A stretch of DNA of 64,000 bases from a virus (IMGVR_UViG_3300021431_000102:1-64000), one strand, 5' to 3'; positions 9,090 to 28,201 are shown, counted from the stretch's first letter. A program made the numbers and translations. The notes: a model not told the origin generated them from the sequence alone.

Positions 9090-9440
9090 GTGAAGAATGG
9101 AATGGATATTAAAGAATTAAAAGAAAAAATAAAAAACAATATACATATAATTTATAATGTCTCATTATTAAATGAAGACATGATAGAAGAAAGTGATTTA
9201 GAAGATATTAATATATCAGCATATTGTTTATATAAAGACATGAGAGATTTGGTTTCTTTATATGAAAATAAAATTCTGAATTTGGGAAAAGAAATTAAGA
9301 ATTTGAGAATTGAAAATGAAAATTTGTCTAATGAATTACTTACGGCAGAAGTTGCTTTAAATAAAGCAACGCATGGTAAAATTCACGAAGCAATGGATTG
9401 TGTAAAGATAGAGGATATATTCTTTTCAGTAGATGATTAA
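9090..9440 (+). CDS. hypothetical coiled-coil protein
   Basis: ORF, heptad-like C-terminal half. Confidence 0.65.
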   Translation: MKNGMDIKELKEKIKNNIHIIYNVSLLNEDMIEESDLEDINISAYCLYKDMRDLVSLYENKILNLGKEIKNLRIENENLSNELLTAEVALNKATHGKIHEAMDCVKIEDIFFSVDD

Positions 9441-9976: not shown

Positions 9977-11113
9977 ATGAATTTTAAAAAAGGAATTAGA
10001 AATTTTAATGTAACAGGGAAGTTAAGATTAACAAACAATACGTTTAATATTGATAAGCGTAAAGAGGGAAGTAATTATATTTATTCAAATGCAAATCTAG
10101 TTTTAGATTGTGGGCAGGGAAATGTATTTTGTAATTTAGTAGGTGGTCATTTTGTCACTGGTGAAAATACTATTTATGCCTTAGGAATCAAGGAAGAAGA
10201 TGGCAAGATTAGAACCGATTATCAGAAGCAGATTAAGGTGCCATTTGAAAACAGATTTGACGATTCAATTTTGAAAAACATTTCTCTGGATAGCTTCACC
10301 ATTTTCAATATTGAAAAAGATTCTGATGGTAAATTAATTTCAAAGAAGTTCTTGGCAAAGGAAGACGCTGTTAAATATTTACAGGCTACACTTGAAGATG
10401 GTATGGTCTTAAATATCTCTGGCGATATTTCATTCAGAGTAGATGAACAGGGTAAGACGTTATTTACTTTAAATATTAAGAGAATTTATTTAAATGAAAG
10501 AGAAAATCCTGTACTGCATGCTGACTTTACTATGACAGTAGTAACGGACAAAGATTGTTATGATTCTTTAGAAGGTGTTGATGAAAATGGAATGGTAGAA
10601 ATGAATTGTTTTGTTACCGAATACATGAAGGAATATCATGGAATCGAAAAGTCAATTTTACCTTTACCATTTAAGTTCTATATCAACACAAAAGAAAGTG
10701 ATAATTGGAAGAAGATTATTAGTGAATATTTTAGACCAATGAATAAGTATTTAGCAGAGACAACCATTGAAGGTAGCATTGTATCTGTTGGTAATACACA
10801 GACAGTTGGTCTGGAAGATGTCCCTGAAGACGTCAGAAAGCTTGTAGAGTTAGGCTTGATTTCTGAAAATGAATTAGCAAAAATTGCAACGAATAATAAT
10901 TCATTAATACAGATGATGGTATTCAATAGACCAAGAGTTATTATTCAGGATGGCAAGATGTTAATCATGAACAATAAGGAAAAGTATACAACAGATGATT
11001 TTGATTTTATGAATTCAAAATCTGAAACTGTAAAACCAAAAGTCGAAAAGGCAGCTCCAAAGTTAGAAACGCCAAAAGACGATGATGCGCTGTTTGCGGA
11101 ATTATTTGGATAG
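9977..11113 (+). CDS. putative ssDNA-binding protein (SPbeta YorF-like position)
   Basis: Beta-rich body; acidic/aromatic tail DDDALFAELFG; directly upstream of the AAA ATPase. Confidence 0.55.
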   Translation: MNFKKGIRNFNVTGKLRLTNNTFNIDKRKEGSNYIYSNANLVLDCGQGNVFCNLVGGHFVTGENTIYALGIKEEDGKIRTDYQKQIKVPFENRFDDSILKNISLDSFTIFNIEKDSDGKLISKKFLAKEDAVKYLQATLEDGMVLNISGDISFRVDEQGKTLFTLNIKRIYLNERENPVLHADFTMTVVTDKDCYDSLEGVDENGMVEMNCFVTEYMKEYHGIEKSILPLPFKFYINTKESDNWKKIISEYFRPMNKYLAETTIEGSIVSVGNTQTVGLEDVPEDVRKLVELGLISENELAKIATNNNSLIQMMVFNRPRVIIQDGKMLIMNNKEKYTTDDFDFMNSKSETVKPKVEKAAPKLETPKDDDALFAELFG

Positions 11114-11127
11114 GAGGGTAATTATTT

Positions 11128-12279
11128 ATGGCATTTAAGATGAATAAAGTTAAGGTTGATTTATGTAGTTATCCTCAGTATGTCCTTATTGGTCAGAGAG
11201 GAATCGGTAAGACAACTCTGTTTAGAGATATTGTCAAAGCAGAATATGGTTCTCCAGAATGCGGATTGTTAATCTCTTGCGGAAACGAAAGTGGCTATCA
11301 TGCATTAGATGATTTACAGGTTGAAGAAGTTCATGAATGGACAAAGGAATATGGTTATCCTGAAAGTGAAGAAGGAGTACCAGAAGAATATTGGACACGT
11401 GGTCTCGTAGAAGTAATTGATGATTTAGTAAATAATAAATCAAATTACAAAATTAAGATTGTATGTCTTGATACTTTAGATGAACTTTATCCTTTAGCAG
11501 AACAGAGAGTATTTGAAGAGCACAAGAAGAAGAAGGGTACCTACCCTGAGAGTCTTAATGCAGCACTTGGTGGTTACGGACGGGGACAGCAGCGTGCTGT
11601 AGAACTTGTAACAGAACAGATTTCTCGTTTAAGAAACGCTGGATATGGAGTATTCATTATCGGACATGTTAAGGTTAAGGATAAGATTGACCCTGTAACT
11701 GGCGATGTGTACGAACAGTATACAAACAACCTGTCAAATAAATACTTTGGAGCCGTAGCTGACACTGCACAGATGGTAGTTAATATTGTTAATGAACTTA
11801 ATGTCGTAGGTGGTAATGCTGATAAGGCAGGAAGAATTGCTGGCTCAAGTCGCATGATGTATTTTAGAGATACAGGTTTGATTGATGCTAAGAGTAGATT
11901 TGTAGGTATGCCTGAAAAGTTACCATTATCTGCAGAAAATTTCTTACAGGCTTTTAAAGAAGGAGTTAAAAATTCTCAGTCGGTTCCAATTTCAGAAAAG
12001 GAAATGAAAAAGCAGATTAAGAAAGAAGAAAAGGATTCTCAAATTCTCTCAGAGAATGCTCAGAAGAAGGAGCAGAAAGCTGATACTAGAAGAAGAGAAG
12101 AACTGGTCACTTCAATTAAGGATTCTATGAAGAATATTCTCTCAAAGAAAGAAGCAGAAAGCGTTGCAAAGTTGCAGTCTATCTTTAAGGAATATGAAAT
12201 TTCTAATGCAGATGCAATTGATAGTTTAGAATTAAACAAGTTAATTAGTTTATTATCTGCAATTGAAAAATTGAATTAA
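11128..12279 (+). CDS. AAA_24/Sak4-like P-loop ATPase (phage recombination/annealing)
   Basis: Walker A GQRGIGKTT, Walker B CLDTLDE. Confidence 0.8.
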   Translation: MAFKMNKVKVDLCSYPQYVLIGQRGIGKTTLFRDIVKAEYGSPECGLLISCGNESGYHALDDLQVEEVHEWTKEYGYPESEEGVPEEYWTRGLVEVIDDLVNNKSNYKIKIVCLDTLDELYPLAEQRVFEEHKKKKGTYPESLNAALGGYGRGQQRAVELVTEQISRLRNAGYGVFIIGHVKVKDKIDPVTGDVYEQYTNNLSNKYFGAVADTAQMVVNIVNELNVVGGNADKAGRIAGSSRMMYFRDTGLIDAKSRFVGMPEKLPLSAENFLQAFKEGVKNSQSVPISEKEMKKQIKKEEKDSQILSENAQKKEQKADTRRREELVTSIKDSMKNILSKKEAESVAKLQSIFKEYEISNADAIDSLELNKLISLLSAIEKLN

Positions 12280-22249: not shown

Positions 22250-22780
22250 ATGAATAGAGAAAAATTATTAGAAGAGAATATGAAATTAGTTCCACACGTT
22301 GTGCATAACGTGTTAAAAATTCCAACAACGGAATTTGATTATGAAGACATCTTACAGGAAGGATATATTGGATTGTGGAAACGGACAAAAAACTTTTCTG
22401 AAGATAATGATGCAAAATTTTCAACTTATGCTTGTACATGCATTAGAAATCGTGTTATAAATTATTTAAACAAACCTAGAAGAACTTTTTACAGAGGAAT
22501 ATATATGGGAGGTGTTTCTCTTGATAACACATTAGATGACTCAACAGAAAACACTTTCCATAATGTTATAGGTAGCGAAGAATCTGACACCGCAGGATAT
22601 GTAACATTAAAAAATGTTTTAGATTCATTAGATAAAGATGATGTAATGGTTAAAACATTAATGTTACATATGCAAGGATATAGTAATTTAGAAATATGTG
22701 ATATTATTGGATGCGCAAAGCCTACTGTAAAAATTTATCTAGACCAAATAAGGGAATACATCAAGTATCAACTTGGTTAG
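22250..22780 (+). CDS. phage-encoded sigma70-family RNA polymerase sigma factor
   Basis: Region 2 EDILQEGYIGLWK..AKFSTYA..CIRN; region 4 HTH GYSNLEICDIIGCAKPTV. Confidence 0.85.
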   Translation: MNREKLLEENMKLVPHVVHNVLKIPTTEFDYEDILQEGYIGLWKRTKNFSEDNDAKFSTYACTCIRNRVINYLNKPRRTFYRGIYMGGVSLDNTLDDSTENTFHNVIGSEESDTAGYVTLKNVLDSLDKDDVMVKTLMLHMQGYSNLEICDIIGCAKPTVKIYLDQIREYIKYQLG

Positions 22781-22790
22781 AAGGAGCAAT

Positions 22791-25022
22791 ATGAAAGATA
22801 TAAAAGTAAAAAAGCGTAATGGAAAGCTGCAAGATTTTAATTCTGAAAAAATTTATGCTGCTATTATGGGAGCTGTAAACGATGTTGGCAGACCTATTAA
22901 CGAAGACATTATAAAAAGAATTGTAAAAGATATTGTTGAATATGTAAATACCCTTGATAAAGAGTTTATTACGATTGAAGAGATTCAAGATTTAGTAGAA
23001 AATAAATTAATGAATAGTTCTCTAAAAGATATTGCTAGACAATATATTAGATACAGATATAAAAGAGAATTATTAAGGAAACAAAACACAACTGACGAAA
23101 GTATTATTGAATTATTAGCAGGTAATAATGATTATTGGAACAGAGAAAACTCTAATAAAAATGCTAAACTAACAACTACTGTTCGTGACTATGTTGCTGG
23201 TATTACTTCAACAGATATTGCTAGAAGAGTTTTATTACCAAAAGATGTTGTTGAAGCACATGATGCTGGAATAATTCATATCCATGACATGGATTATATT
23301 TTAACACCAAGAAACAATTGTTGTCTTGTTAACTTAGAGGACATGTTAAATAATGGTACAGTAATTAACGGCATTAAAATTGAATCACCTCATAGATTCA
23401 TTACAGCAAGTACTATTGCTACACAGATAATTACTGCTGTAAGTTCAAGCCAATATGGTGGTGTTACTGTAAGCATGACGCATCTTGCTCCTTTTGTAAG
23501 AAAATCTTATAATAAATATTTAAAAGAATATTTAGAAAGAGGATTAGAGCAGAAACAAGCAGAAGATTTTGCTAGATTAGACACTGTTAGAGAGGTTAAG
23601 GATGGCGTTCAGACATTTAATTATCAGGTAAATAGTATGTCAAGTACTAATGGACAGGCTCCATTTATTACCGTTAATTTAGATATTTCAGAAACAAAAG
23701 AATATAAACAAGAATTAGCAATGATTATAAAAGAATTCTTTAATCAAAGAATTGAAGGCATGAAAAATGAACAGGGCGTCCCTGTAACAATTGCTTTCCC
23801 AAAATTAGTTTATGTCCTTTCAGAAGAAAATGCTGTTGAAGGTTCTGAATATTGGTGGTTAACTAAGTTAGCAGCCAAGTGTACTGCTAAGAGAATGGTT
23901 CCAGACTATGTATCTAAGAAAAAGATGCAGGAATATAAGATTAATAGGTTTGGTAATGGTGATTGCTATCCTCCTATGGGATGTAGAAGTTTCTTAACGC
24001 CGTACAGAACGAAGGGCAATATTGCCAAAGCTTTAAACTATAAAGAAGATGAACCTAAATATTATGGCAGATTTAACAATGGTGTAGTTACTATTTCATT
24101 ACCAGATTTAGCACTTAGTTCAGGTGGAGATTTTGATAAATTCTGGGAATTATTTGAAGAAAGAACAGAATTATGTCATAAAGTATTGAAATACAGACTG
24201 GATTCTTTGAAGAATTTAAGTCCTGAAGTAGCTCCTATTCTATGGAAGTATGGAGCATTTGCAAGACTTAACTCTGATGATTCTATTGAACCATTATTAC
24301 ATGATGGGTATTCTACAATATCATTAGGTTATGCTGGTTTATATGAGTGTGTAAAATATATGACAGGCAAATCTCATACAGATGAAGCAGAAGGCGAAGC
24401 ATTTGGACTGAAAGTCATGCAGGCTTTAAATGACAAATGTGCTCAGTGGAAAGCTGCTGAAGATGTTGATTATTCTGTATATGGAACACCAATTGAAACA
24501 ACTACATATAAGTTTGCTACTTGCCTTAAGAAAAGATTTGGAAAAGATGTTTTCAAAAAGATTGACGGCACTGATACAGATAGAGACTTTATTACAAATA
24601 GTTATCATGTCTTTGTTGAAGAGCCTATTGACCCATTTGAAAAGATTAGATTAGAAGCAAAGTTCCAAAGATTAAGCCCGGGTGGTGCAATTAGTTATAT
24701 AGAAACATCAGATTTAACTAACAATGTAGATGCAGTATTAGAAGTTATTAAGTTTATATATGATAATATTGTTTATGCTGAATTAAATACTAAATCAGAT
24801 TATTGTCAAGTCTGTGGATATGACCATGAAATAAAGATTATTGAAGATGGTAAGGGTAATTTAATTTATGAATGCCCGAACTGTGGCAATAGAGACCATA
24901 ATAAAATGAATGTAGCAAGAAGAGTCTGTGGATATATCAGCACGACTATGCCAAATAATGGAAGAATGGACGAATTTCGAAACAGGTATGTGCATTTAGA
25001 CAACCATGAATTAAAGGAGTAA
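22791..25022 (+). CDS. nrdD: anaerobic ribonucleoside-triphosphate reductase with ATP cone
   Basis: VKKRNG ATP cone, MGCRSFL, CQVC/CPNC, RRVCGYI glycyl-radical motif. Confidence 0.95.
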   Translation: MKDIKVKKRNGKLQDFNSEKIYAAIMGAVNDVGRPINEDIIKRIVKDIVEYVNTLDKEFITIEEIQDLVENKLMNSSLKDIARQYIRYRYKRELLRKQNTTDESIIELLAGNNDYWNRENSNKNAKLTTTVRDYVAGITSTDIARRVLLPKDVVEAHDAGIIHIHDMDYILTPRNNCCLVNLEDMLNNGTVINGIKIESPHRFITASTIATQIITAVSSSQYGGVTVSMTHLAPFVRKSYNKYLKEYLERGLEQKQAEDFARLDTVREVKDGVQTFNYQVNSMSSTNGQAPFITVNLDISETKEYKQELAMIIKEFFNQRIEGMKNEQGVPVTIAFPKLVYVLSEENAVEGSEYWWLTKLAAKCTAKRMVPDYVSKKKMQEYKINRFGNGDCYPPMGCRSFLTPYRTKGNIAKALNYKEDEPKYYGRFNNGVVTISLPDLALSSGGDFDKFWELFEERTELCHKVLKYRLDSLKNLSPEVAPILWKYGAFARLNSDDSIEPLLHDGYSTISLGYAGLYECVKYMTGKSHTDEAEGEAFGLKVMQALNDKCAQWKAAEDVDYSVYGTPIETTTYKFATCLKKRFGKDVFKKIDGTDTDRDFITNSYHVFVEEPIDPFEKIRLEAKFQRLSPGGAISYIETSDLTNNVDAVLEVIKFIYDNIVYAELNTKSDYCQVCGYDHEIKIIEDGKGNLIYECPNCGNRDHNKMNVARRVCGYISTTMPNNGRMDEFRNRYVHLDNHELKE

Positions 25023-25025
25023 CTT

Positions 25026-25529
25026 ATGAGAATCGCAAACATTAGACGTATAGACATTACAAATGGCGAAGGTATTAGAGTATCTTTATTTACTCAAGGT
25101 TGTTCGTTACATTGTAAGGGGTGTTTCAACTATGATATTTGGGATTATAATGGCGGAGAATTGTGGACAGAAGAAACTAAACGTATGTTCTTGTCTTTAT
25201 GCGATAAGCCTGAGATAAAAGGAATATCTATCTTAGGTGGCGAACCACTGTCTAAAGAAAATTATGAAGACTTAAAAGATTTATTAATCACTTTTAAACA
25301 GGAATTTCCTAATAAAGATATCTGGTTATGGACAGGATATACAGTAGAAGAGTTAACCCCTGAACAAAAAGACATTGTTATGTTAGTTGATGTTCTAATT
25401 GATGGTAGATGGGTTCAGGAACTAGGAGATTTTAATTTAAAATTTAGAGGTTCTAGTAATCAAAGAGTAATTGATGTACAAAAATCTTTAAAAGAAAATA
25501 AAATTATTTTAAAAAATGTTGACTTTTAA
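25026..25529 (+). CDS. nrdG: anaerobic RNR activating enzyme (radical SAM)
   Basis: CSLHCKGC, LGGEP, RGSSNQR. Confidence 0.95.
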   Translation: MRIANIRRIDITNGEGIRVSLFTQGCSLHCKGCFNYDIWDYNGGELWTEETKRMFLSLCDKPEIKGISILGGEPLSKENYEDLKDLLITFKQEFPNKDIWLWTGYTVEELTPEQKDIVMLVDVLIDGRWVQELGDFNLKFRGSSNQRVIDVQKSLKENKIILKNVDF

Positions 25530-25547
25530 ACAAAAATAATGTATAAT
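25519..25547 (+). promoter_or_regulatory. sigmaA promoter driving the RNA/tRNA operon
   Basis: TTGACT-17-TATAAT. Confidence 0.8.
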
Positions 25548-25551
25548 ATAT

Positions 25552-25698
25552 ATGAAAGATGAGGAAGACGTTGTGAGGATTCTAAAACTTATCTTATCAA
25601 TAATTTCCGCTACATTATCCATTTTAAATCAAGATAGAAAGATAAAATTATATTGGTTATTGGTCGCTACATATTGGATAATTAATCGGTTCAACTAA
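25552..25698 (+). CDS. small hydrophobic peptide (41-48 aa)
   Basis: Open frame ..VRILKLILSIISATLSILNQDRKIKLYWLLVATYWIINRFN; GAGGA SD before an internal GTG. Confidence 0.45.
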   Translation: MKDEEDVVRILKLILSIISATLSILNQDRKIKLYWLLVATYWIINRFN

Positions 25699-25770
25699 GG
25701 TTACACACCGTTTCATATTAATGAGTAAATCCTTGAGGAATCTAAAAACGGTGTTTCTCTAAATCAATAA

Positions 25771-27241
25771 ATCTGCAATATGGACTATGACAGGTACCAA
25801 GTAAAAGTCATAGAGAAGTCCACTAGATTAGGAACTAGTCAGGCAACCAAGACGAAGAGCCTGAAAAAACATTACCTGAGAGTTGAGTAGCTACTTCTCC
25901 AAAGGCGACTATAAAGGATTAGACAGGCAGTCGACATAAGGGACTAAGCAGATTTAGATAATATTATTGAGGGTACAGGCATCGAGCCAACATTCAATTA
26001 GTTGCCAAGACCTTAAGAAATGTTAGAGGTCTGAAATCTCAAGATAAAACTGGTGGTGCAGCCTTGAGTAAGTAATGCGAAACGTGCCTTCTGGGGCTTG
26101 TAAAAAGCGAACCACTTACAGACTGAGGTGGTATATAAGAAGCAGTCATATCCCACCACCGCATACCTAACGCTCGTTGGGTGGATGTACTAGTTAAAGT
26201 GCGGAAACTCAAGGGATAGACTCCCTTCAAACAGAGGTTGAGCTCTGTAAAGTGTTGGTAGCCAAGCATTAAAAGGCGCTTAAGACAATAGTTGCTGCGT
26301 ACGTGGAACACTTGGAGGACGAACTCCTTGTATATCGGCTAAGCGTTGGGAAAAGGAACTGGAACGTAATCCTAGGCAAAAGGGTAGAGATATACATAAC
26401 TTGCCAATATAAATGTTGTGAAATCCACAGCAGATGCGTGTGATTGATTGATAGAAAGGAATGTAATGGCACAAATAAAAAATTATTCTGGTTATGAATT
26501 TTTTGAAGATGGACGAGTGTATTCTTATAAGGTTAAGCGTTTTTTAAAACCATCTTTAAACAAAGACGGATATTTGCAATTAGATTGCATAGATGATAAT
26601 GGAAATAGAAAAAGACACACTTTAAATAACTGGATATGTCGAGCATTTCATGGAGACCCTCCATTTGAGGGGGCAGAATCACTTCATTTAGATGAAAATC
26701 CATTAAATTGTCATAGTAATAATTTAATATGGGGTAATCATAAAGAAAATATCAATTATGGTTCAAGAACTACTAAAAATGCTATTTCTCATTATAAACA
26801 AGTCCAGCAATATGATTTAAAGAATACCTTATTAAATACATACACTTCTATTAAAGAAGCTAGCAACGCTACTAAAATTTCTTATACTGGCATTATTAAA
26901 GCCGCACAAGGGAAAATTCAAACATCAGGAAATTATATTTGGCGTTATACAAACTAATACTATTGAAACTGCACACCCAACACTAATTCGTTTGGTAGAG
27001 TACGAGAATAACTACCCAAGAAGGGTTCACGATGGTACCTTGCTTCACAACCTAGAGCAGTAAAGAAATGCAACTATAGAGCAGAGTAAAGAGACTAAAG
27101 GTAAATCGTTGTAAAAATGGTGATGTCAGTTTGAACGGGACTGGGACAAAAACGTTCCTTGCTGGGTTAGGCTAGTGATACCCAACGAAATCCTAGTATT
27201 TGGCTTATATACTTGAGAAAGTAGTGACTAGCATTGCAGAT
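25771..27241 (+). ncRNA. giant structured ncRNA, probably ROOL class, interrupted by an HNH ORF
   Basis: GC-rich, dense in hairpins; ATCTGCAAT (25771-79) pairs perfectly with ATTGCAGAT (27233-41); the 5' block GCAATATGG-CTATGA..GTAAAAGTCATAGA..TAGTCAG-CAAC..CGAAGAG-CTGAAAAAACATT resembles ROOL as I recall it; sits upstream of tRNAs in a phage. Structured RNA is well supported, the family name less so. Confidence 0.7.
26466..26957 (+). mobile_element. HNH homing endonuclease (NUMOD4-HNH-NUMOD1 type, I-HmuI-like), 163 aa
   Basis: KNYSGYEFFEDGRVYS N-terminus; AFHG..HLDENPLNCHSNNLIWGNHKEN HNH core; VQQYDL..YTSIKEA..GNYIWRY C-terminus; AGAAAGGA SD. Confidence 0.85.
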
Positions 27242-27420
27242 GAAGACTAAAATAAGCTGTCTTCACACACAGGAATAACACTGTTGTCTGCCAGTGCCTG
27301 CGATTAGTAGCAAAGCCTTACGTACAGTACGAACTGGTAACAGGCGGTTTGATGCCACCTGCCCAGCGTTGGCTAAAAGCTGTACACCCGTTTGGCAGAG
27401 TTCGAGAATAACTGCCGAAC
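27242..27420 (+). ncRNA. additional hairpin-rich RNA segment between the giant RNA and tRNA-Met
   Basis: Consecutive stems GAAGAC/GTCTTC, CAGG..CACTG/CAGTG..CCTG, CAGG/CCTG, CAGC/GCTG, GTTTGGCAG/CTGCCGAAC. Confidence 0.55.
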
Positions 27421-27424
27421 ATAT

Positions 27425-27503
27425 TGCGGGCGAGTGGCACGGATATACCATATTAGGCTCATAACCTAATGATACTAGGTTCGACTCCTAGGCACCGCAA
27501 CCA
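27425..27503 (+). tRNA. tRNA-Met(CAT), initiator-like but atypical
   Basis: TTAGG-CTCATAA-CCTAA anticodon arm, CTAGG-TTCGACT-CCTAG T arm, ends CCGCAACCA. Confidence 0.85.
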
Positions 27504-27506
27504 TAT

Positions 27507-27582
27507 TAGACTGTAGCCAAGTGGTAAGGCACCAGACTTTGACTCTGGCACTTCGCTGGTTCAAATCCAGCCAGTCTAGCCA
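27507..27582 (+). tRNA. tRNA-Gln(TTG)
   Basis: Clean cloverleaf: TAGACTG/CAGTCTA, CCAGA-CTTTGAC-TCTGG, encoded CCA. Confidence 0.95.
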
Positions 27583-27584
27583 AT

Positions 27585-27658
27585 GGGGGATTAGTTCAAA
27601 GGCAGAACAATCGGCTGTTAACCGATATATAGAAGTTCAATTCTTCTATCCCCCGCCA
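27585..27658 (+). tRNA. tRNA-Asn(GTT)
   Basis: GGGGGAT/ATCCCCC, ATCGG-CTGTTAA-CCGAT, encoded CCA. Confidence 0.95.
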
Positions 27659-28054: not shown

Positions 28055-28201
28055 ATGGGAAGAAAAAAGAAGTATAATATACTTGAAGATGCAGAAATGG
28101 TATCTTTATTAAAGGAGTATAGTTCGTTAAGAGATTGGTGGCAAGTAAGGAAAGAAAAGTTAAGCAAGAAAAAGAAAGGAGCACCAAATGATTCACATTG
28201 A
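28055..28201 (+). CDS. small basic hypothetical protein
   Basis: AAAGGA SD before ATG 28055. Confidence 0.55.
   Translation: MGRKKKYNILEDAEMVSLLKEYSSLRDWWQVRKEKLSKKKKGAPNDSH

Follow-up and report, generated by a model that had tools for sequence, protein, structure and literature searches.

A probable HNH homing endonuclease gene in the apical loop of a structured RNA module of phage tRNA arrays

In the viral DNA window analysed here (64,000 nt, the start of the 87.9-kb IMG/VR record IMGVR_UViG_3300021431_000102), a free-standing HNH homing endonuclease gene of the I-HmuI type has probably colonised the apical loop of hairpin P4 in a conserved structured RNA module; we put the probability of this reading at roughly 80%. 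The inserted cassette (26448..26966, + strand) is 519 nt long and is missing from empty alleles. Judged by its covariation, the host is a self-closing four-way-junction RNA module found in phage tRNA arrays, and the family to which it belongs appears to be undescribed.

The insertion lies in a stretch of about 1.9 kb that separates nrdD/nrdG (22773-25529) from a pair of tRNA genes, tRNA-Gln (27507-27582, + strand) and, downstream of it, tRNA-Asn (27585-27658, + strand). The only sizeable ORF in this stretch is the nuclease gene itself (26466-26957). On either side of it the GC content is 42-50%, and within it the GC content drops to the genomic 25-33%. The GC-rich region as a whole (25700..27420, + strand; background about 30%), located between nrdG and the tRNAs and free of ORFs except for the HNH gene, is a composite of predicted RNA modules; relatives have some parts of it, lack others or carry them in another order. 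A sigma-70-like promoter, TTGACT-17-TATAAT, is predicted at the end of nrdG (25519..25547, + strand; 11 of 12 consensus matches) and probably drives a transcript that includes the RNA, the HNH gene and the tRNAs; no terminator-like sites were found between this promoter and position 28200. Upstream of tRNA-Gln there is also a tRNA-like element (27430..27499, + strand) with CAU in its anticodon loop, a degenerate acceptor stem and a score of 28.1 bits against a cut-off of 29. A BLASTN search of the region against GenBank phages returned no match.

Several elements of this neighbourhood recur in relatives, which are numbered here with the prefix L. A hairpin of the form GGYAG-AGTWCGAGAATAA-CTRCC occurs twice in the window, at 26989..27019 (+ strand) and at 27389-27419 just upstream of the tRNA-like element, and the same hairpin stands directly 5' of a true tRNA-Met(CAU) in L003, L041 and L042. 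The 370 nt between the two copies are missing from L041 and L003 and partly from L002, where window positions 27017-27152 are replaced by about 51 nt. Further 5', a hairpin ACACCGTT...AACGGTGT enclosing GTAAATCC (window 25698-25757) is common to L003, L012, L030, L035 and L037, and L012 has an insertion within its equivalent. The minus strand of L003 has an extra ORF-free, GC-rich segment of about 500 nt (10641-11170) between the equivalents of window positions 26085 and 26188, possibly a further RNA module that was inserted there. Three relatives have, just 5' of the RNA region, a 98-nt tRNA with a UCA anticodon, called as tRNA-SeC by ARAGORN (L003 11829-11927, L012 8368-8465, L037 2498-2595), which could be a suppressor or an allo-tRNA-like species.

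About 40 related loci were found by pattern scans of IMG/VR and the JGI metagenomes, and among the IMG/VR matches this HNH occurs only in the window and in the 99%-identical contig L002. The module resides in the tRNA arrays of large phages with a low GC content, for the most part sampled from rumen and gut. Some of the metagenome contigs (L034, L035, L040, L038 and L043) end inside the module core or at most 72 nt past it; perhaps the assembly breaks there because filled, empty and variable-arm alleles coexist within one sample. The 16-mer GAGTWCGAGAATAACT was discarded as a finder of relatives, as its matches were mostly chance or coding and its sole true relative was L012, and matches of the P2-loop word in a Bacillus paralicheniformis contig (L060) and at window position 9112 were dismissed as chance.

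Read directly, the sequence around the insertion runs through GTGTG (26438-42), ATTGA (26443-47), TTGATAG (26448-54), the SD AAAGGA (26455-60), the ATG at 26466, the TAA (26955-57), CTATTGA (26960-66), AACTG (26967-71) and CACAC (26972-76), so that every coordinate of an earlier sequence-only reading of this DNA is correct. That reading had described an HNH gene inserted with near nucleotide precision into a stem-loop and had proposed aligning HNH-less alleles from related phages. Such an alignment bears the description out and defines the site. The empty alleles L012, L041, L030, L031 and L042 all read GTGTG-ATTGAAACTG-CACAC, and because their flanks are identical to those of the window the extra DNA can be assigned to 26448-26966, placed in the 10-nt apical loop ATTGA^AACTG of the GTGTG/CACAC hairpin (P4). 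The identical hairpin without an insert is found in about 30 related phage and metagenome contigs, i.e., the locus is polymorphic for presence and absence at one exact site in homologous DNA. Since the last five nucleotides of the cassette (ATTGA) repeat the five that precede the insert, the exact insertion point is ambiguous within ATTGA.

The cassette is made up of an 18-nt leader with the SD (26448-65), a 492-nt ORF including the stop codon and a 9-nt trailer ending in ATTGA, which leaves 27 of its 519 nt outside the ORF. This composition bears on the possibility that the flanks are exons and the insert an intron, removed by self-splicing or by enzymes. HNH genes of this type usually reside in phage group I introns, and the stem that closes the cassette does juxtapose both of its ends. 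However, 27 nt leave no space for a ribozyme core, group I and group II models find no match in the locus at E<=1-10, and two relatives with a homologous insert, L054 and L056, have a stop codon that overlaps the native loop. With only 27 nt of the insert non-coding, splicing is very unlikely, and we give the intron explanation hardly any credence. A targeted search of the whole record with the group I model (RF00028) was likewise negative, in agreement with the earlier view that the host is not an intron: what the flanks form is a different, covarying four-way junction.

In 5' to 3' order this junction consists of a closing helix P1, hairpin P2, a conserved linker, helix P3 with a variable arm, a 4-nt linker, and P4 with the insert, and the unit that hosts the HNH gene has a size of 110-250 nt. 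All parts are given for the + strand. P1 pairs AGTGTTGG (26251..26258) with CCAACACT (26977..26984); double changes occur in 8 of its 8 pairs, and relatives have GGGGAAGGA/TCCTTCCCC, ACTGG/CCAGT, GTGTCGG/CCGGCAC and other variants. P2 (26261..26277) is a GCC/GGC hairpin in which 26261-63 pairs with 26275-77 around the nearly invariant loop AAGCATTAAAA; it is paired in 100% of cases, with pair variants GC/AU and AU/CG/GC/UA. The J2/3 linker (26278..26294) contains the near-invariant TAAGACAATAG, recognised from its invariant alignment columns. The 5' strand of P3 (CTGC, GTAC, GTGG; 26295..26306) pairs with GCAG (26430-33) and CCAC (26425-28), which belong to a 3' strand, CCAC A GCAG, that is followed by the 4-nt linker ATGC (26425..26437, placed by alignment and covariation). 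All four pairs of P3a show double changes, and L046/L049 have the variant CCC/GGG. The distal arm of P3 (26307..26424), which contains a GGAGG..CTCC hairpin, is as short as about 9 nt in L012/L030 and reaches about 150 nt in L041. P4 is interrupted by the cassette, its 5' strand GTGTG and the loop half ATTGA at 26438..26447 and the loop half AACTG and 3' strand CACAC at 26967..26976, both assigned by reading and covariation.

The GTGTG/CACAC pairing that had been proposed from the single sequence is real: its second pair covaries (UA 11, CG 7, GC 1), the hairpin in a Bacillus-labelled MAG contig is GCGAG/CTCGC, and the minimum free energy fold of 26246-26988 forms it together with a 7-bp stem at the ends of the cassette and an outer helix. 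For the module as a whole, an alignment of 10 HNH-free sequences has 96.4% of cells paired and 11 double-change pairs, a result matched by 0 of 500 shuffles and compared with 31-50% pairing in slid controls. The same picture is seen with 19 more diverse sequences (95.8% paired, double changes in 18 of 24 pairs, 0 of 500 shuffles, slid controls 32-44%). The RNA strand can be assigned as + because G.U pairs are present solely in that reading, and the module is thereby co-oriented with the tRNAs. Since P1 and P4 both span the insert and covary, the two flanks are parts of one RNA. The further suggestion that TGTTG (26414-18) and CAACA (26978-82) bridge the insert picked the wrong partner. CCAACAC(T) at 26977-84 pairs instead with (A)GTGTTGG at 26251-58, the P1 strand with double changes in 8/8 pairs, and relatives without the 26307-26424 arm have no TGTTG yet keep P1. 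A contact between AUUG in the loop and CAAU in J2/3 is speculation, with both sides invariant and zero covariation.

The structured RNA detected in the sequence-only reading is thus genuine, but the description of it as one giant RNA does not hold, since the module behaves as a separable unit. It occurs alone in L029 (a 178-kb phage), L044 and L049, and in L042 it lies downstream rather than upstream of the hairpin-plus-tRNA-Met unit. Because the module can stand alone or be reordered in this way, the window's "giant RNA" is better read as what is probably a chain of modules. A long-range repeat (26223-35/27126-38) that might have closed a single giant RNA was discounted, as neither L003 nor L012 conserves it. 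Membership of the ROOL or GOLLD families, as had been envisaged, is also contradicted, as neither Rfam model matches: targeted searches of the whole record with ROOL (RF03087) and GOLLD (RF02032) gave nothing, and since the ROOL search (E<=1) was silent in 14 control genomes too, this negative rests mainly on the all-family cmscans, in which no Rfam family besides tRNA matches the region in the window or its relatives even at E<=10.

The module is itself not recognised as a tRNA, with no match to tRNA models at E<=10 and no call by ARAGORN. Its modelled shape is nevertheless cloverleaf-like, a resemblance that we infer in geometry only: a P1 of 7-8 bp runs straight into a P4 of 5 bp, the P1-P2 linker is the 2-nt UA, the P3-P4 linker has 4 nt, and in L046, L049 and L042 the module sits at tRNA-like distances from the neighbouring tRNAs. 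In a brine metagenome (L045) we observe a diverged copy with P1-P3 and a GACAATAG linker in which a canonical tRNA T-arm, GGTTCGAATC, replaces P4; this copy hints that the module is derived from, or mimics, a tRNA.

The inserted gene (26466..26957, + strand) encodes a protein of 163 aa in which the HNH motif is flanked by NUMOD modules, as in I-HmuI-like HNH homing endonucleases. The NUMOD4-HNH-NUMOD1 layout noted earlier is intact: NUMOD1 scores 31.9 bits, above its Pfam cut-off, and HNH_3 (24.3 vs 24.8) and NUMOD4 (22.2 vs 23.4) fall 0.5-1.2 bits below their curated cut-offs. PHROG HNH families match the ORF at E 1e-25, and the only relative of the protein with a solved structure is I-HmuI (1U3E, E 1.3e-5). 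From a protein database we obtained 16 relatives, of which nine, with 58-75% identity to the window protein, were aligned; His74, Asn78, Asn86 and His92 are invariant across these nine homologues, and all nine ORFs are intact. Wherever the context of a diverged homologue (59-75% identity) was readable, i.e., in L046, L049, L053, L054, L056 and L057, the gene is at the same loop position, so that this HNH lineage occupies that position in at least seven diverged RNA alleles. In the six diverged HNH-bearing modules P1, P2, P3 and P4 still pair, using different sequences, and it is from retained pairing in HNH-bearing alleles only that toleration of the insertion by the host RNA is suggested. A more distant HNH gene (L084, 30% identity) was set aside: it lies between genes in the ordinary way and has no RNA module, so residence in the loop is a trait of this HNH sub-lineage.

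In four of the carriers (L046, L053, L056 and L057) the HNH gene contains in-frame TAG codons at positions that are Gln in homologues, for example codons 4 and 63 in L046 and codons 106, 111 and 114 in L057. These carriers seem, from the aligned residues, to read TAG as Gln. As all four contigs need this reassignment inside the HNH gene, the gene would be a long-standing resident of recoded phages.

Such long residence raises the question of whether the HNH protein could be a domesticated partner of the RNA, acting as part of a ribonucleoprotein or as an RNA-guided or RNA-regulated nuclease, rather than a selfish element. The exclusive and long-lived tie to one RNA site (seven alleles, 59-99% identity), the co-evolved stem discussed below and the adaptation of some carriers' genes to TAG=Q decoding all fit that idea. 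Against it, about 30 of the roughly 40 modules lack the HNH gene, some of them with a core identical to that of a carrier, and the protein is of the minimal NUMOD-HNH DNA-binding nickase type with no additional domain. We consider domestication distinctly improbable.

The same distribution fits a mobile gene. Mapped onto a tree of module cores, HNH presence requires six changes, of which no fewer than four are forced; in its core the window matches the empty L041 exactly, and L002 likewise matches the empty L031. Between the window and L002 there is about 1% divergence over 5 kb and there are 0 differences across 26294-27016. This segment (26294..27016, + strand) is a candidate co-conversion tract: six differences cluster just 5' of it, in 26262-26293, and an indel follows 27016. 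Its significance is modest, since only about 3-7 differences would be expected in a block of this kind and RNA constraint lowers the rate, but an identical HNH block within two different RNA alleles looks like co-conversion, albeit from small numbers. The homing proposed in the sequence-only reading is in keeping with both the patchy presence and absence and this co-conversion-like block, although the patchiness could instead come from repeated precise loss rather than gain.

Stem-closed extensions of 17-32 nt without an ORF are found in the P4 loop of L036, L073, L064 and L080, exactly at the HNH insertion point. They have nothing in common in sequence with either end of the cassette. They show that an additional helix can be accommodated in the loop, and they could be, but need not be, what earlier insertions left behind.

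If they were leftovers, they would be in line with a history in which the cassette entered once, has since only been inherited and lost, and encodes a nuclease that no longer moves; the decay of the closing stem and anti-SD in the window could be read in the same way. This relic scenario is improbable in our view, given that the catalytic residues are invariant and the ORFs intact in 9/9 homologues, that one identical HNH block is found within two different RNA alleles, and that the short extensions lack sequence common to the cassette ends.

The stem at the base of the cassette in the window, TTGATAG/CTATTGA, has 7 bp, five Watson-Crick and two G.U. The SD-adjacent stem postulated in the sequence-only reading is therefore present, but by itself it does not exceed chance expectation: the leader/trailer duplex has an energy of -5.6 kcal/mol, which 50% of shuffles equal or better, and it leaves the SD uncovered. 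What makes it meaningful is that six relatives have stems of 11-23 bp at the same place. In L046, L049, L053, L054, L056 and L057 the leader is paired to the trailer together with the last part of the ORF, in stems of 23, 20, 20, 13, 11 and 22 bp with 1-4 G.U pairs each and with the SD fully inside; by locus, L046, L057, L049 and L053 have 20-23 bp and L054 and L056 have 11-13 bp. Leaders also fit their own trailers best: own pairs have a mean energy of -15.7 kcal/mol, compared with -9.4 when leaders and trailers are crossed and -5.9 when they are shuffled. The window has lost the anti-SD portion, and 7 bp persist with the SD free. The proposal that the RNA controls translation of the nuclease thus gains from the SD-burying stems in six relatives and loses from the weak stem and free SD of the window, and we would infer such control for the HNH family rather than for the window copy.

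A different role for the same stems would be that of an rRNA-type intervening sequence, for which insertion into the apical part of a helix and an extended closing stem are characteristic; both are seen here, with 11-23 bp in the relatives and 7 bp in the window. RNase III would then cut the cassette from the precursor at the closing stem with no re-ligation, leaving a two-piece module held together by P1 and P4. The stems of 20-23 bp in L046, L057, L049 and L053 are long enough for RNase III, and the excision of the Coxiella intervening sequence by this enzyme is a precedent (PMC4990558). However, the 11-13 bp of L054 and L056 and the 7 bp of the window are short for this purpose, and stems that contain the SD fit simple translational repression equally well. 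We regard such excision as possible, if on the unlikely side; it would be compatible with homing at the DNA level and would alter the biology of the RNA.

Under the preferred explanation, a homing gene in the P4 loop, the nuclease would nick or cut empty-loop DNA around GATGCGYGTGATTGAAACTGCACRC, where the RNA gene is most conserved, and repair by recombination with an HNH-bearing co-infecting phage would copy the cassette along with some flanking RNA sequence, the carrier being protected by its split target. The cassette would be transcribed within an RNA/tRNA precursor from the 25519-47 promoter, and the leader/trailer stem would extrude the ORF from the loop such that the RNA can still fold. 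In most alleles the stem would bury the SD and confine translation to the time before the trailer is transcribed, or to after the stem is opened or cut. In the window, where the stem would have decayed to 7 bp with the SD free, translation from the precursor would run without this brake. More broadly, we tentatively suggest, at odds that fall just short of even, that the HNH lineage has co-evolved with an uncatalogued, tRNA-shaped phage RNA family whose most conserved hairpin loop is the homing site, and that the insulating helix of the cassette both keeps the RNA foldable and either gates co-transcriptional translation or marks the ORF for excision by RNase III.

If true, this would be the first non-intron, non-rRNA structured RNA found to host a homing endonuclease gene, and the RNA locus would combine a functional ncRNA with an element that propagates itself. 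The niches of homing endonucleases (introns, inteins, intergenic spacers and rRNA insertions) would come to include a loop in a small structured RNA of phages, and the cost of insertion could be met by a co-evolving stem that extrudes the ORF and traps its ribosome-binding site. The nuclease target would also mark the most constrained part of the RNA, which belongs to a widespread family absent from Rfam, with at least 40 members, very strong covariation, invariant loops and a tRNA-like geometry within tRNA arrays. The natural pairs of filled and empty alleles are ready substrates for a new nicking specificity, and they bear on whether an RNA loop can take a large cargo without loss of folding.

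The nearest protein relatives, I-HmuI and I-HmuII from group I introns of the Bacillus phages SPO1 and SP82 (PDB 1U3E), are of the same NUMOD4-HNH-NUMOD1 type, and there too a structured RNA extrudes the ORF from one of its loops and the insertion splits a conserved target. Unlike those introns, which reside in protein genes, the host here is a non-intron, non-coding RNA and the insert is not removed by self-splicing. T4 SegB, located in the tRNA cluster (PMC2330249), as well as mobE and SegF (the latter a case of 'intronless homing') are likewise free-standing with no intron or intein, and as for SegB the setting is a phage tRNA region in which spread by cleavage and co-conversion of flanks is expected. 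Those genes lie between other genes, whereas this one is inside an RNA gene, at one loop nucleotide and with a co-evolving RNA stem. ROOL and GOLLD are similarly phage- or prophage-borne, tRNA-adjacent, GC-rich, ORF-free and ornate, and an HNH gene neighbours GOLLD in a mycobacterial tRNA cluster (PMC6582537). The present host differs from them in having no Rfam match and in being a self-closing module of 110-250 nt. Our literature search found no HNH gene inside ROOL, GOLLD or another small ncRNA.

Work from the Belfort and Edgell laboratories reportedly established that translation of the intron-encoded I-TevI is controlled by a hairpin that sequesters the SD. In that system also, burying the SD in RNA structure means that little enzyme is made and the folding of the host RNA is protected. 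The difference is that here a long-range leader/trailer helix encloses the entire ORF, its 3' strand taking in the final stretch of the ORF and some of the host loop.

The closest likeness is to ORF insertions in rRNA, which likewise place a stem-closed ORF near the tip of a helix in a structured RNA. Helix 45 of the Coxiella 23S rRNA carries an ORF-bearing intervening sequence that is excised by RNase III (PMC4990558), and rRNA genes of CPR bacteria have insertion sequences with LAGLIDADG genes (PMC11270868); among such ORF-bearing insertions there are some without an intron-like fold and some whose product is a homing endonuclease that cuts the very site of insertion (PMC4990558, PMC11270868). 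The insertion described here differs in that its host is a small phage RNA, its nuclease is HNH rather than LAGLIDADG, and its closing stem doubles as an SD trap.
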